Below are positions 7,803 to 11,486 of a DNA stretch of 32,000 bases, piece after piece. This DNA comes from Methanobacterium sp. PtaB.Bin024 (lineage in GTDB: Archaea > Methanobacteriota > Methanobacteria > Methanobacteriales > Methanobacteriaceae). Each line of letters starts with the position of its first letter. Positions within the stretch are counted from its first letter, which is position 1. The position numbers were made by a program, and so were the translations under genes. The stretch is taken from positions 102,334-134,333 of the forward strand of contig MVPY01000043.1 of assembly GCA_002067065.1 (NCBI GenBank), in the 5' to 3' direction. The notes under the pieces are model-generated. The model made no database searches and was not told the DNA's origin. It saw nothing but the letters and a program-made list of their open reading frames with translations.

Positions 7803-8177
7803 TTACTTTTTTTTAGGAGAATTTTTACTTTTTTTTCCAGAATAATATCCTTTGAGTAAGGGTAGAGTACTAAAAATCTTTTTTAAATCTTCCCACTCAG
7901 GATATTCCTTGCTAATAACCATGATATGTGCTGGGGGGTGTATTTTCCTTATCCGCACAATACTACGTGTAGCATCATCTTCAACAGATATGAGGACTGC
8001 AACTTTAGATTTAGACCTTAATTTATCTTTAATTATCCTCTGAACATATTTATCAGCTACTTTAGAATCAATGATTCTTGGTTTTCCGTTGATCTTAAGT
8101 TCAGCATGTCTTTCAATATCTGCAAGGCTGTTAAGGATTTTTGCCTGGTTTTCAGCACGAACAAGTATCAGGGTCAA
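7803..8177 (-). CDS. hypothetical cytoplasmic protein with a basic C-terminal tail; last gene of the Mur-ligase operon
   Basis: 124 aa with a TTG start. The start lies 4 nt after the stop of the upstream 422-aa gene and is preceded by GGCGGT. No TM segment and no recognisable motif; the tail reads GKKSKNSPKKK. Confidence 0.55.
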   Translation of the reverse strand: MTLILVRAENQAKILNSLADIERHAELKINGKPRIIDSKVADKYVQRIIKDKLRSKSKVAVLISVEDDATRSIVRIRKIHPPAHIMVISKEYPEWEDLKKIFSTLPLLKGYYSGKKSKNSPKKK

Positions 8178-8181
8178 TTAA

Positions 8182-9450
8182 CTACCGCCTTTTTTTAAGG
8201 AAGGAGCTGATTAGAGTACTGCGGAATAAAACCAGAATTATAAGTATTAATCCAATTGCAGTCTGTATGCTCCCTACTATGTCCAGTACTGAAGAACTAA
8301 TGGGTAAATCCCAGGCAGGAGATGTTCGTTGGTTAGCAAGAGGTTTGTAATAAATACCAACTGATCGAGTACTTTCCACGATGTTAATATCTTTAGGCTC
8401 GATATAATTTACTCCAACCAGGTTACCATTGTCTATAGCTTTATTAATAGCACTGGCAATTGTAACAGCGTTAAAACCGTTTTTGTTAACTGAATAGGTA
8501 ACAATTTCATCAGTGGTTTCACTGATACCTGCTGCATCGGTTCCATAGGTATAGACGTTCGTATCATTGTTAGTCACAGTAATAGCATCTACCATGGCAT
8601 CATAGGCGTAAACAGTCTTTAATGTGGTTCCGTCATAGGGACAGGTTTGATAGCTGTCTGCTTCAGGAAATGCAACACTCCAACCACATTCAGGGCACTT
8701 TTTGGAATATTCAGCATCCATAGGATAACCGGTGGTGTTGAGGGTTTCAGGGGTGAACATGTCACCAGTGGTTAAGGAAGATACAAGGTTATCTCCTCCT
8801 CCCCCATATTTTTCCCCGGAATCTATGGCAACTTCTTTAAAAGCCGCACCCAAGATCTCAGTGGCAGGGTATCCATCTCGAATCATTTTACCAATAGTAA
8901 TTGCTGTTTCTTTTCTAACTGTTGAGGCTGTTCCATATTGGGGGTTACCATGGGTATTACGCAGGTGAATTATAGCACCTTTCTTTCCAGCTGGAAGCGT
9001 GGCCAGACCACTGGATACAGGTGTAGCTGTTATGGTTCCATCATCATCCACAGTTACCACATAAGCATCAAAGGATCCTCCTACGGCTGCTCCGATGGTG
9101 GGGCCTCCACACATTATCCTGATTCCAGAAAAACTATTAGCAGCACTGGCAGCAGTTGATGCATTTGCACCGTTTTCTAATAGTCTAATTGTTTCCACAA
9201 TGGCTCCCAATCGAGGAGTTTGATTACCCTCCCCCCCTGAAAGAACTGCAAAATGATTATTTTTGGACATAATGAAGGTAGATTGGAACATGTTATCTGC
9301 AAAGGACATACTTCCTGCTGCAGCTCCATTAGGATCCTCTCCAGTGGGGTCAGTGATAATAATTATGTTACATGTGGCTGCTGAAGTGTTAATCAGCACA
9401 ACCAGTATGAACATAAACATTATTATCCTGGGTAAATGTTTTTTGATCAT
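8182..9450 (-). CDS. uncharacterised extracytoplasmic protein with an N-terminal signal or anchor and a C-terminal TM anchor
   Basis: 422 aa, with a GGTGA SD 8 nt upstream of the ATG. The N-terminus MIKKHLPRIIMFMFILVVLINTSAATC has a signal-peptide n/h/c organisation. The C-terminus GSIQTAIGLILIILVLFRSTLISSFLKKRR is a TM helix with a basic tail. The central region is Gly/Ala/Thr-rich and contains KKCPECGW...TCPYDG. Confidence 0.7.
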   Translation of the reverse strand: MIKKHLPRIIMFMFILVVLINTSAATCNIIIITDPTGEDPNGAAAGSMSFADNMFQSTFIMSKNNHFAVLSGGEGNQTPRLGAIVETIRLLENGANASTAASAANSFSGIRIMCGGPTIGAAVGGSFDAYVVTVDDDGTITATPVSSGLATLPAGKKGAIIHLRNTHGNPQYGTASTVRKETAITIGKMIRDGYPATEILGAAFKEVAIDSGEKYGGGGDNLVSSLTTGDMFTPETLNTTGYPMDAEYSKKCPECGWSVAFPEADSYQTCPYDGTTLKTVYAYDAMVDAITVTNNDTNVYTYGTDAAGISETTDEIVTYSVNKNGFNAVTIASAINKAIDNGNLVGVNYIEPKDINIVESTRSVGIYYKPLANQRTSPAWDLPISSSVLDIVGSIQTAIGLILIILVLFRSTLISSFLKKRR

Positions 9451-9461
9451 CTTAGTGTCAC

Positions 9462-9896
9462 CTATGAAGAAGTTTGATTCACTTGGACTGTGGAAAAGTC
9501 TTCTATAACCGTAACAGTCAATATGCCTGTTTTTTTGTCTAATTTAACACTGACTGCTTTTATGGGAGTTATTGTTGTCCCGGGAAGGGTTGAAAGCATA
9601 GCTGCTTGTTTCGCATTCTCTAGGGCCTCATTCAAGGGAACCTTTCGTTTACTGGTTATGAGCGTGTCTCCCTTTATGTAACTACCTGATCTGAAACCAA
9701 CATTGGCAATGTTAGTTTTAATGGAGTCGGTGGGTACTATGTCGTTTCCTTTTACTATAACTCCAGCTATTGGAATTCCTTGTTCTGTTTCTGTGGATGA
9801 AGCATAGGACATATATGCCATCAACCTTCCAGATACTATAAGGATAAAGGCTAACATTAGAATTATCAGGGTGTCTCTTCTCACCTTTATAAACAT
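9462..9896 (-). CDS. uncharacterised bitopic membrane protein (single N-terminal TM helix, ~110-aa external domain)
   Basis: 144 aa with a GGTGAG SD. The TM helix is TLIILMLAFILIVSGRLMAY. The start lies 9 nt after the Mur-ligase stop, and the stop lies 11 nt before the next gene. Confidence 0.7.
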   Translation of the reverse strand: MFIKVRRDTLIILMLAFILIVSGRLMAYMSYASSTETEQGIPIAGVIVKGNDIVPTDSIKTNIANVGFRSGSYIKGDTLITSKRKVPLNEALENAKQAAMLSTLPGTTITPIKAVSVKLDKKTGILTVTVIEDFSTVQVNQTSS

Positions 9897-9905
9897 TTTC
9901 TCACC

Positions 9906-11486
9906 TTATTTTTCACCAATTTTTTCCATATTTAAATCGATTAAAAGTTTAATATTATCTTTAAATTTAACTGCAGCTTCACCAAGACATACCACTGTAT
10001 CTGTGTTACATTCCAATCCTTTTTTAAGCCCCTCAAGCACCTGTTCTTGAGTAGCTCCAAGTGTACCGCTGCGAAACTTGTCAGGTTCTTTATCAGTTAA
10101 TTTGATCTTCCCTGATGAAATATATTTTCCTGCAGCCTGTCTAGAATAGTAGGAGGCTGGTATGATAAAGTCAGCATTGGCCATTGTTTTTTTCATGATC
10201 TCTTCATCTCCAGTTCTTCCTGATTCAGAGGAAATGGTGATGACCACTGATAGTTTGTCATAGGTTTTTTTAAGTTCTCTAAGTACAGTTTCAACTCCTG
10301 AGGGGTTGTGTGCATAATCCACAATTAAATTCAAGTTTTCACTGTGATAAATGCATTCTAAACGTCCAGGAACACCTTTAAACGTTTTAAGATACTTTTT
10401 AATGTCTTCAAGTGGTATATTCAATAGTTCGTGTGCTGTGGCAATGGCTCCCAGAGCATTGTAAACATTATGCAATCCTGAAATTCCCATTTCCATTTCT
10501 ATAATTTCTTGGGGAGTTTGAAGTAAAAAACTATTCTCAGTAATATTCTTGGCCAAATAATGAGGAATGGGTCGTTTTAGGCCGCACTGACACTCATAAT
10601 AACCTACTCCAGAAAGGGTTTCCTCGATTAAAATTTCTCTTTTGCACCAACAAATTTTTTTACTTACTCCTTGTGGTGTATGCTCAACACCAAAGGTTAC
10701 CACCTTTCCCTGGTAATTTAATTCTGATAAAAGTCCCCATATAGTGGGATCATCACTGTTAAGTACAACAGTTTTTCCCTGAAGCTCTTCCAAGAGTTCT
10801 CCTTTTATGCGGGCGTATTGCATGAAGTTTGACCCATTATTCAGGTGATCAGGGGTTATGTTAGTTATAACACCACAGGAAGGCTGGCATCGTTCAAGAC
10901 TGAATTTCAAGTCTCCTTTTTCTCCTTCGGTTCCTGTTTCCAGCACTGCAATGTCCCCGTTTAATCTACACTGCAATGGCGGAATATAAGCAACATTTCC
11001 CTGAAGTGTTTTGAATCCATGTTCAGTGGGTTTTAAACCTGCCCTATAACAGAAATGTTTCAGAAGGGTAGTTGTTGTGGTTTTTCCATTGGTCCCTGTA
11101 ATACAGATCACTGGTTTATCCGGATTGATCTGCTCAATAATATCATCTACTTCCATTAGTTGGGAATTGCTTTTTATAATTTTTTTGAACAATTTTGAAG
11201 TTTTTGATAAACTCGGAGGGGGGATTATGTAATCTGAAGAGGTGAAAAATGATTCAGGATGGTCTGATAAATATATGGGGGGGTTATATTCTGCAAGTGT
11301 GTAAAGGAATGGGCAGTTGTCTGAATTCTGAAGATCGGTACATATTACGTTGTGTTGGTGGTCCATGAGGACTCTGGCAACTAAATTTCCAACTACACCA
11401 CAAATGCCTATGACTCCGTATGTTTTTTTTCGGGAGAGGAGAACCTCTTTCAGTTTGGATGAATGTTTGTCCATATTAGCACTCAT
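9906..11486 (-). CDS. Mur-ligase-family pseudomurein peptide ligase (MurD/MurT-like) with a Cys4 insertion
   Basis: It has a Rossmann-like N-terminus (GVIGICGVVGNLVARVL), the P-loop ICITGTNGKTTTT, and the central and C-terminal Mur-ligase motifs (ITPDHLN, DYAHNPSG). It also carries CWC...x17...CQC at nt 10584-10652. The track start is 11543; ATG 11486 (MSANMDKH...) is preferred because a perfect GGTGAT lies 7 nt upstream. Confidence 0.85.
   Translation of the reverse strand: MSANMDKHSSKLKEVLLSRKKTYGVIGICGVVGNLVARVLMDHQHNVICTDLQNSDNCPFLYTLAEYNPPIYLSDHPESFFTSSDYIIPPPSLSKTSKLFKKIIKSNSQLMEVDDIIEQINPDKPVICITGTNGKTTTTTLLKHFCYRAGLKPTEHGFKTLQGNVAYIPPLQCRLNGDIAVLETGTEGEKGDLKFSLERCQPSCGVITNITPDHLNNGSNFMQYARIKGELLEELQGKTVVLNSDDPTIWGLLSELNYQGKVVTFGVEHTPQGVSKKICWCKREILIEETLSGVGYYECQCGLKRPIPHYLAKNITENSFLLQTPQEIIEMEMGISGLHNVYNALGAIATAHELLNIPLEDIKKYLKTFKGVPGRLECIYHSENLNLIVDYAHNPSGVETVLRELKKTYDKLSVVITISSESGRTGDEEIMKKTMANADFIIPASYYSRQAAGKYISSGKIKLTDKEPDKFRSGTLGATQEQVLEGLKKGLECNTDTVVCLGEAAVKFKDNIKLLIDLNMEKIGEK

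Follow-up and report, generated by a model that had tools for sequence, protein, structure and literature searches.

The locus considered here raises the question of which proteins act on pseudomurein outside the archaeal cell, and whether the genes that directly follow a pseudomurein Mur ligase gene are plausible candidates for this role. To our knowledge, the glycan polymerisation and peptide cross-linking of pseudomurein have been without demonstrated enzymes ever since a pathway was put forward in the 1990s. The DNA analysed is a stretch of 32,000 nucleotides from Methanobacterium sp. PtaB.Bin024 (contig MVPY01000043.1, positions 102,334 to 134,333), which is referred to below as the window and in which all coordinates are given. 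Four consecutive genes on its minus strand encode pMurC, a cytoplasmic pseudomurein peptide ligase (9906–11486), a 144-aa protein of the Mfer763 family (9462–9896), a 422-aa protein of the Mfer764 family (8182–9450), and a 124-aa cytoplasmic protein with the Pfam domain DUF356 (7803–8177). The analysis, which was entirely computational, showed that Mfer763 and Mfer764 form an almost invariably adjacent gene pair whose products are both exported or membrane-anchored; the predicted structures point to a POTRA-like domain in the first and an Ntn-type (N-terminal nucleophile) hydrolase fold in the second, whereas the DUF356 gene is probably a syntenic passenger rather than a pseudomurein-specific component.

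The original prediction, made from the sequence alone, had taken the first gene for a pseudomurein Mur ligase, and the assignment was borne out by the NCBIfam model of pMurC, NF053645 (802 bits against a cutoff of 560, model positions 1–492), with the Pfam domains Mur_ligase_M and Mur_ligase_C also present. The 144-aa and 422-aa proteins covered the full length of the models for the Mfer763 family (NF053641, 235.8 bits, cutoff 170) and the Mfer764 family (NF053642, 699.1 bits, cutoff 560), respectively. Orthologues of pMurC ligate Ala or Thr to UDP-Glu (Cha et al. 2026; PMC12996149). Further upstream, on the same strand, lie the genes of an ATP-grasp protein designated ‘Ddl_archaea’ (14902–16056), a pseudomurein MraY-like transferase (13458–14534) and pMurE (11903–13318), and the models NF053643, NF053644 and NF053648 were all above their cutoffs for this upstream half of the cluster (11903–16056). 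Between 16056 and 8182, the minus strand therefore carries the ATP-grasp, MraY-like and pMurE genes followed by Mfer763 and Mfer764. This is the arrangement described as pseudomurein ‘Gene Cluster 2’, in which two conserved, pseudomurein-specific membrane or exported proteins were noted downstream of pMurE (Subedi 2021; PMC10117817), and it was later recovered without prior knowledge as ‘cluster A’ (Lupo 2025; PMC11915815). In the latter study, the two proteins were listed as hypothetical and ‘devoid of known domains’, one being credited with a Sec signal peptide and the other with one transmembrane (TM) segment (PMC11915815). The closest named relatives belong to Methanobacterium petrolearium (96–99% identity), and what is seen here is the distal portion of the already described pseudomurein cluster, in a Methanobacterium close to that species.

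The linkage itself is thus already known: both papers proposed Mfer763 and Mfer764 as candidates for pseudomurein synthesis, and dedicated NCBIfam models exist for the two families. Since it has been published and is covered by curated models, the central idea of the original prediction, that the operon partners of the ligase are candidates for the missing steps, is not new; it stands for the two exported proteins and is mistaken or unsupported for DUF356. The accompanying remark that the membrane and extracellular steps have no assigned enzymes was overstated, as the literature offers MraY-like, flippase, UppP/UppS and transglutaminase candidates, although it is correct that none has been shown to carry out the extracellular steps. 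According to the literature, no transpeptidase or transglycosylase homologues are known for pseudomurein.

The strength of the coupling between the four genes was assessed in a survey of 160 related loci. A pattern-based scan of species-representative genomes for the Mfer764 family gave 194 matches, and synteny was read from the best 80 of them (loci L001–L080); the survey also included about 45 metagenome loci with the cluster order, found with a 7-sequence DUF356 alignment as the query. All of the best 80 of the 194 matching genomes had a Methanobacteriales-type cluster, one of them being a metagenome-assembled genome labelled Methanomicrobiales. The gene order in the 80 genome loci and the approximately 45 metagenome loci was ATP-grasp, MraY-like, pMurE, [pMurC], Mfer763, Mfer764, DUF356, aMBF1 (opposite strand), and the proteasome-activating nucleotidase PAN. 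Each of the four open reading frames (ORFs) has hundreds of homologues; they are real genes, and their order has been kept far beyond chance in the 80 species-representative Methanobacteriales genomes.

The intergenic distances differed greatly between the junctions. The gap between Mfer763 and Mfer764 had a median of 10 nt and did not exceed 20 nt in 98 of 120 cases. The corresponding median for pMurC and Mfer763 was 137 nt, with only 7 of 73 gaps of 20 nt or less, and for Mfer764 and DUF356 it was 39 nt, in a range from 1 nt to more than 6 kb (at most 20 nt in 55 and more than 100 nt in 43 of 131 cases), with 1.8–6.5 kb inserted in five loci. At the same time, the ligase gene found directly upstream of Mfer763 alternated, being pMurC in 70 loci (about two thirds) and pMurE in 33. 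Because of these distances and this alternation, the Mfer763–Mfer764 pair is the fixed, tightly coupled unit, while the 9-nt pMurC junction and the 4-nt DUF356 junction seen in the window are features of this sub-lineage. The tie to pMurC, which the original prediction overstated, is lineage-specific. The expected restriction to pseudomurein lineages agrees, for Mfer763 and Mfer764, with the best 80 of the 194 matching genomes, and fails for DUF356. For the two exported families, absence outside these lineages rests on the literature, which confines them to pseudomurein lineages and places them in every case downstream of pMurE (PMC10117817, PMC11915815). Compared with Gene Cluster 2/cluster A, the same genes are present here in the same order (ATP-grasp/CPS-like, MraY-like, pMurE, pMurC where present, Mfer763, Mfer764), and nothing essential differs, this being another species' copy; the published descriptions do not include DUF356, and in the window the pMurC gene is inserted and unusually close to Mfer763 (9 nt against the median given above).

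Two observations made during the survey concern the cluster as such. The locus labelled as a Methanomicrobiales archaeon (L022, JBNGDB010000017.1) carries the full Methanobacteriaceae-type cluster together with a PAN gene product 85% identical to that of the window, for which reasons its label or binning is probably wrong. In many relatives (loci L008, L028, L045, L054, L121, L140 and L142), an extra 1.7–3.3 kb lies between pMurE and pMurC, and some of these inserts contain a further Mur-ligase-like ORF, 23–25% identical to pMurC and possibly encoding pMurD. This ORF is absent from the window, where a 416-nt AT-rich spacer is found instead.

The original prediction had counted two of the three downstream proteins as extracytoplasmic, and this count was correct: a hydrophobic anchor stands at the N-terminus of the 144-aa protein, the 422-aa protein combines a signal peptide with a C-terminal TM segment, and the 124-aa protein has neither. 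In Mfer763, the anchor (residues 10–33; 9798–9869, minus strand) is preceded by an invariant basic tail, MFIKxRRDT, and followed by a predicted POTRA-like domain (residues 44–133; 9498–9767, minus strand) with the element order beta-alpha-(hairpin)-alpha-beta-beta. Mean column identity was 0.94 in the tail, 0.87 in the TM segment and 0.82 in the ectodomain. As the tail and TM segment are more conserved than the ectodomain, which is atypical for a cleaved signal peptide, this pattern favours a retained signal-anchor of N-in orientation. A possible cleavage site, S-Y-A↓S (after A32), is nevertheless present, and the ‘Sec’ call of Lupo (PMC11915815) may refer to Mfer763.

The AlphaFold (AF2) model of Mfer763, with a predicted local distance difference test score (pLDDT) of 77.5, consists of a helix (7–33) preceding a domain built of strand 45–49, helix 56–64, an inserted hairpin, helix 88–100 and strands 112–120 and 125–132. 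The only match of the family profile among the PDB sequences was POTRA2 of Haemophilus BamA (6j09; E 2.4e-4 over 33 residues), and nearly all of the top 30 Foldseek matches of the model in the PDB were POTRA domains (BamA, TamA, Omp85, CdiB), with probabilities of up to 0.98 and root-mean-square deviations of 2.9–3.5 Å over approximately 94 columns. From the modelled structure, it is concluded that the outside part of Mfer763 adopts a single POTRA-like fold. POTRA domains are docking modules. No literature linking pseudomurein genes to POTRA was found.

Mfer764 is predicted to comprise a cleavable signal peptide, an Ntn-hydrolase-fold domain, a linker with a pair of Cys residues, an alpha/beta C-terminal domain and a C-terminal TM segment. 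Its 24 N-terminal residues are hydrophobic and form the least conserved segment of the protein (0.48), whereas in the stretch that immediately follows, A25, T26 and N28 show no variation among 101 sequences. The pattern [ASV]-[AS]-A↓T-x-N was present in all 122 orthologues with an intact N-terminus among the 123 extracted from the loci, a sample that covers the Methanobacteriales genome matches and metagenome contigs and does not include the orthologues of Methanopyrus and Methanothermus. It constitutes a perfect predicted −3/−1 signal-peptidase site with Thr at +1, and the NCBIfam model of the family begins at residue 25. Thr26 (codon at 9373–9375, minus strand) is accordingly the predicted first residue of the mature protein and a candidate N-terminal nucleophile. 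A lipobox reading of the ‘AATC’ at this junction was rejected, as position 27 varies between M, C, L and T across the orthologues.

The Ntn-type domain (residues 26–221; 8788–9375, minus strand) was assigned from the AF2 model, in which pLDDT is 82.8 overall and mostly above 90 over residues 27–221, and from Foldseek. The secondary structure elements follow one another as S1–S4, H1, H2, S5–S8 (+2), H3, H4 and S9, with S1 starting at residue 27; this is the order of the proteasome-beta-type Ntn hydrolases. The top Foldseek matches in the PDB were eight entries of circularly permuted human Taspase-1 (6ugk being the best), with E-values of 4.6e-6 to 9.5e-5 and a probability of 1.0. The further matches (the DUF1028 protein SPO2555, 2imh; Anbu; bile salt hydrolases; proteasome subunits; GlmS) are all Ntn hydrolases as well, 2imh having the highest target-normalised TM-score (0.52). 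The permuted Taspase-1 chains were checked and carry the nucleophilic Thr at residue 2, and native-order Taspase was absent from the top 50 matches; since the permuted form heads the list and the native order does not appear in it, a ‘nucleophile-first’ topology is argued for Mfer764. The four-layer alpha-beta-beta-alpha sandwich that characterises the Ntn superfamily is thus seen at the level of the predicted structure, while the autocatalytic processing typical of the superfamily has no counterpart, there being no propeptide between the signal peptide and Thr26. Approximately 60 residues of the domain are invariant, many of them polar, including S47, S49, T58, S62, S71-G72, R80, R111, H162, N169, R179, R191-D192 and E213. 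A search of the model against viral structures, prompted by an annotated ‘NTN-hydrolase’ in the Methanobrevibacter virus MSTV1, gave nothing significant. Neither of the fold assignments, for Mfer763 or Mfer764, was found in the searchable literature.

Several features outside the Ntn-type domain deserve mention. The highest conservation within Mfer764 (0.85) is that of the C-terminal TM anchor (residues 389–411, QTAIG...LVLFRS; 8218–8286, minus strand), which precedes a basic tail and corresponds to helix 386–419 in the model. The preceding stalk, W-x-L-P-[IV]-[SGN] (residues ~380–385; 8290–8305), has an invariant P383, and L382 is present in 98 of 101 sequences. Taken together with the hydrophobic helix and the KKRR tail (8182–8286), the W-x-L-P motif resembles a sortase-type cell-wall sorting signal, and a pseudomurein-specific sortase-like gene has been reported in cluster C (Lupo 2025; PMC11915815); a permanent membrane anchor is preferred because the C-terminal helix is so highly conserved. 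The C-terminal domain (residues 298–367; 8350–8559), modelled as strand 298–302, helices 309–324 and 328–340, and strands 355–358 and 363–367, shows the order beta-alpha-alpha-beta-beta of the POTRA topology, so that, if the models are right, a POTRA–POTRA beta-augmentation with Mfer763 is a possibility. In the linker, C252 and C270 (8641–8697) are each Cys in 86 of 101 sequences, with mainly Ser in the remainder, and are replaced largely together, which suggests a dispensable disulfide. A zinc-ribbon reading of this segment (CPECGW...CPYDG) was rejected, since most orthologues have Asp in place of the second CxxC cysteine and C252 and C270 are replaced largely together.

These observations can be combined into the following putative mechanism. 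Mfer763, an N-in bitopic protein with its POTRA-like domain outside, would serve as a protein-docking module that positions or docks Mfer764. Mfer764 would be cut by signal peptidase after the invariant A25, which would free Thr26 as the N-terminal residue, and the enzyme would be held at the outer face of the membrane by its C-terminal helix, partnered with Mfer763. The hydroxyl group of Thr26, activated by its own alpha-amino group, would attack an amide bond of an exported pseudomurein stem peptide and form an acyl-enzyme; if water then resolved this intermediate, the terminal residue of the stem peptide would be trimmed, and if an amine of a neighbouring stem did so, a cross-link would result. 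Stem-peptide amide bonds are proposed as the substrate because Mfer764 is tethered to the membrane on the outside and partnered with Mfer763. That the TM segments of the two proteins are so strongly conserved suggests, in addition, a membrane complex in which both are assembled with the machinery of the lipid-linked precursor. Judging from the models, we put at about even chances the general proposition of a catalytically active Mfer764, an Ntn-type enzyme with pseudomurein peptides as its substrates. The specific proposition that it is the pseudomurein cross-linking enzyme itself, a Thr-Ntn transpeptidase held at the membrane that has its nucleophile unmasked by signal peptidase, is positioned or activated by Mfer763, and would remove the terminal residue of one exported stem peptide and pass the acyl group on to an amine of an adjacent one, is offered tentatively and must be called unlikely at present.

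A number of results weigh against this interpretation of the pair. Beyond family membership, what is said about the two proteins derives from AlphaFold models built on shallow alignments (65–100% identity, hhalign Neff 1.8), and cleavage between A25 and T26 is itself predicted. No Pfam match at E ≤ 10 was obtained for Mfer763, including the POTRA models (PF07244, PF08478 and related ones), nor for the whole Mfer764 protein and its separate domains, including Asparaginase_2; the Foldseek E-values of Mfer763 to single POTRA domains are weak (at least 0.018). The hhalign comparisons of Mfer764 with a Taspase-1 fragment (probability 17.7%) and with the beta subunit of EcAIII (0.13%) were not significant, and they paired the nucleophile hairpin of Taspase-1/EcAIII with residues 132–158 of Mfer764 rather than with its N-terminus. 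The signal-peptide and TM calls of Lupo do not map cleanly onto the predictions obtained here, and the literature favours exported transglutaminase-like proteins for the cross-linking step (PMC11915815). Membership in the Taspase/asparaginase_2 family was considered and rejected: the N-terminal T-x-N-IIII-TD...NGAAAGS resembles TVGAV..D..GN.AAA.S.GG by eye, and hhalign did not support the likeness. Because of this lack of support, a fold and not a family is claimed for Mfer764, with the catalytic register drawn from the topology of the fold.

Some of the same evidence can be read in another way, namely, that Mfer763 and Mfer764 form a non-catalytic envelope scaffold in which the Ntn-like domain is a pseudo-enzyme or binding module and the pair acts as an FtsQLB-like organiser of the synthesis or division machinery. 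Docking is what POTRA domains serve for, conservation peaks in the TM segments in both proteins, Mfer764 has no sequence-level match to any catalytic Ntn family, and no proteasome-type invariant Lys is evident among its invariant residues. However, the invariance of the A↓T junction throughout the 122 orthologues, combined with the large number of invariant residues in the Ntn-type domain, is more typical of an active site, and in the model, Thr26 occupies exactly the place where Ntn nucleophiles sit. We regard the scaffold as unlikely, and retain a catalytic Mfer764 docked by Mfer763 as the working interpretation.

The second alternative concerns the fourth gene and assumes that all four genes, including DUF356, make up one functional module, with DUF356 as a cytoplasmic regulator or adaptor of pseudomurein synthesis. 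The 124-aa protein matches Pfam PF04009 (DUF356) with 139.2 bits (gathering threshold 29.9) over profile positions 1–105 of 106, and neither a signal peptide nor a TM segment was found in it. That the family is small follows from an exhaustive profile search of 1.84 billion representative proteins, in which only 75 clusters (50% identity) were obtained. A sequence search of the PDB gave chance-level matches, the best being Lem4 at E 0.033. The protein carries the conserved motifs ADIERHA, IHPPAH and GYYSxK, the first two of which, with their His, Asp and Glu residues, suggest a real biochemical function; in the window, the gene follows Mfer764 by 4 nt with its own Shine–Dalgarno (SD) element, and in nearly all Methanobacteriales loci, it lies downstream on the same strand, the distance being within 100 nt in 88 and within 20 nt in 55 of 131 pairs. 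The latter counts speak against the passenger interpretation, and a lineage-specific functional tie between DUF356 and the cluster may exist.

On the other hand, members of the family were also found in Methanococcus voltae, Candidatus Methanofastidiosum and Theionarchaea, none of which is a pseudomurein lineage. On a Methanococcus-like contig (L123), the gene is flanked by those of a PIN_5 ribonuclease and isoleucyl-tRNA synthetase, and on Methanofastidiosum contigs (L081), it adjoins a cytidylyltransferase-like gene and a primase gene. In nine metagenome contigs of a non-pseudomurein lineage (L087–L094 and L103), it is convergent with aMBF1 and has an ABC transporter gene upstream, and no Mur, Mfer763 or Mfer764 genes were found within 6 kb; the DUF356 proteins of these contigs are 36–38% identical to the Methanofastidiosum query and 32–38% identical to the window protein, their closest representative being P0418 (approximately 47%). 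None of these neighbours is related to the wall. Moreover, spacers exceeding 100 nt or interrupted by several kilobases occur within Methanobacteriales (the 43 of 131 cases and five loci mentioned above), and the housekeeping genes aMBF1 and PAN further downstream are equally syntenic. Accordingly, the occurrence in archaea other than pseudomurein lineages, which the original prediction had itself named as grounds for abandoning the idea, removes DUF356 from the pseudomurein-specific candidates, and the single-module explanation is quite unlikely.

Because it is present in non-pseudomurein lineages without cell-wall neighbours, DUF356 is probably a passenger. The convergent DUF356/aMBF1 pair (7207–8177 in the window) is conserved in Methanobacteriales too, which hints that the association of DUF356 with aMBF1 is older than its association with the wall cluster. 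The best reading is that of a housekeeping-type cytoplasmic protein of class-I methanogens and their relatives, the placement of which reflects an old DUF356/aMBF1/PAN synteny, although it may be co-transcribed with Mfer764 here.

The remaining alternative, in which Mfer764 is a Taspase- or proteasome-like endopeptidase for other envelope proteins (adhesin-like proteins, pilins or S-layer components), can appeal to the best Foldseek E-values, which are to the site-specific endopeptidase Taspase-1, to the matches with Anbu and proteasome subunits, and to the many large surface proteins that Methanobacteriales export, adhesins being mentioned in the literature, but it is very unlikely, given that the gene is fixed in the precursor cluster beside the MraY-like and Mur ligase genes in every genome examined, that the family is reported solely from pseudomurein lineages (PMC10117817, PMC11915815), and that adhesin-like proteins differ greatly from one lineage to another, in contrast to the conserved, single-copy Mfer764.

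The layout of the genes in the window was confirmed as given in the original prediction. The ORF list contains four consecutive minus-strand frames, 9906–11543 (545 aa in its longest form), 9462–9896, 8182–9450 and 7803–8177, separated by exactly the 9, 11 and 4 nt stated earlier, and an SD-like element precedes each downstream start, as had been claimed (GGTGAgaaaATG, GGTGAcactaagATG and GGCGGTagttaaTTG): GGTGA lies 4 nt ahead of the 144-aa ORF and 7 nt ahead of the 422-aa ORF, and GGCGGT lies 6 nt ahead of the TTG start of the 124-aa ORF. The earlier choice of 11486 (Met20 of the long ORF) as the start of pMurC is also the better one. GGTGA is found 8 nt upstream of it, no SD was found upstream of the ATG at 11543, and the match to the NCBIfam model sets in at residue 42 of the long ORF, and the shorter form is preferred on these grounds; pMurC orthologues can be aligned across approximately 520 aa. 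For the TTG start, support comes from 38 homologues, all of which have their first residue in one and the same alignment column (M-[AT]-L-I-L).

For transcription signals, a scan for sigma-70 promoters and hairpin terminators gave counts at or below the shuffle expectation and is not applicable to archaea; a TATA-like/T-run scan of the transcript strand was used in its place. The AT-rich spacer between pMurE and pMurC (GC 0.318 over 11001–12000) contains a TATA-like sequence, TTTATAAA (11712–11719, minus strand), as a candidate archaeal promoter element, and a T6 run (11814–11809 on the transcript strand) approximately 90 nt past the pMurE stop codon. Another T6 run (7761–7766, minus strand), 37 nt past the DUF356 stop codon, is a candidate archaeal terminator, and no T-run of six or more was found in the three short spacers. 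This pattern is consistent with a separate four-gene transcription unit in the window, without proving it. Downstream of DUF356 follow the convergent aMBF1 gene on the plus strand (7207–7722; TIGR00270, 165 bits) and then the PAN gene.

Elsewhere in the window, a region of the minus strand (26609–30402) has the appearance of a full partner-switching module of the bacterial type, here in a methanogen. Its genes encode an RsbW-like HATPase_c_2 kinase (26609–27031), a membrane 5TMR-LYT protein with a SpoIIE/PP2C phosphatase domain (27032–28399), a STAS-domain protein (28533–28889) and another HATPase_c_2 protein, which is fused to a GNAT acetyltransferase (28915–30402), all on the minus strand; as far as we know, archaea are without sigma factors. 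Additionally, two tandem DUF5518 paralogues of 129 and 106 aa are encoded at 30658–31402 (minus strand).

The fold assignments are the added value of the present study, as they make an old question about the extracellular steps of pseudomurein synthesis addressable with one point mutant, and the finding that DUF356 is not pseudomurein-specific leaves one candidate fewer. If the proposed role of Mfer764 is true, a missing wall-building activity would be identified, together with a methanogen-specific extracellular drug target of relevance to rumen and gut Methanobrevibacter, and it would show to what extent the pathway of the archaea arose independently of murein synthesis in bacteria. Should Mfer764 indeed form the cross-links, it would represent an archaeal enzyme class unrelated to the penicillin-binding proteins (PBPs), the LD-transpeptidases or the hypothesised transglutaminases.

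Comparison with known systems helps to place the two proteins. On the basis of its model, Mfer763 appears FtsQ/DivIB-like in architecture and genomic position, without being demonstrably a member of that family. In the dcw gene order, FtsQ/DivIB comes after mur/ddl-type genes. Likewise, Mfer763 would be a small N-in bitopic protein with an extracytoplasmic POTRA-type domain, and its gene directly follows mur/ddl-type genes in a wall-synthesis cluster. It differs in having no POTRA_1/FtsQ Pfam match, in ending at residue 144 with one POTRA-like domain and no FtsQ beta-domain, in a tail and TM segment far more conserved than is usual for FtsQ, and in the absence of linked ftsZ or ftsA.

The modelled domain of Mfer764 shares its strand and helix order with the minimal Ntn hydrolases (proteasome beta/Anbu, 2imh) and with Taspase-1/type-2 asparaginases, and, as in these enzymes, an invariant Thr is predicted to be first in the mature chain, at the start of strand 1. 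The differences are that the nucleophile is predicted to be exposed by signal peptidase instead of propeptide autoproteolysis, that the proteasome-type invariant Lys is not evident, and that Mfer764 has a C-terminal domain and a membrane anchor in addition and is predicted to be extracellular in an archaeon.

Peptide cross-linking requires that an acyl intermediate be resolved by an amine in place of water, and for this chemistry there are Thr/Ser-Ntn precedents in Connectase and gamma-glutamyltranspeptidase. The latter enzyme resolves its acyl intermediate in this way. Neither was among the top Foldseek matches of Mfer764. Connectase is an Ntn-fold transpeptidase of methanogens with Thr1/Ser1 as the nucleophile (PMC7980362); it is cytoplasmic and acts on MtrA. 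Finally, the PBP DD-transpeptidases and the LD-transpeptidases use Ser in the PBP fold and Cys in the YkuD fold, respectively, folds which are unrelated to that modelled for Mfer764, and have no known homologues in pseudomurein lineages; by analogy, however, the niche proposed for Mfer764 would be the same as theirs, namely, that of a membrane-tethered, extracytoplasmic enzyme that acts on stem peptides through an acyl-enzyme and whose gene stands with those of the precursor pathway.

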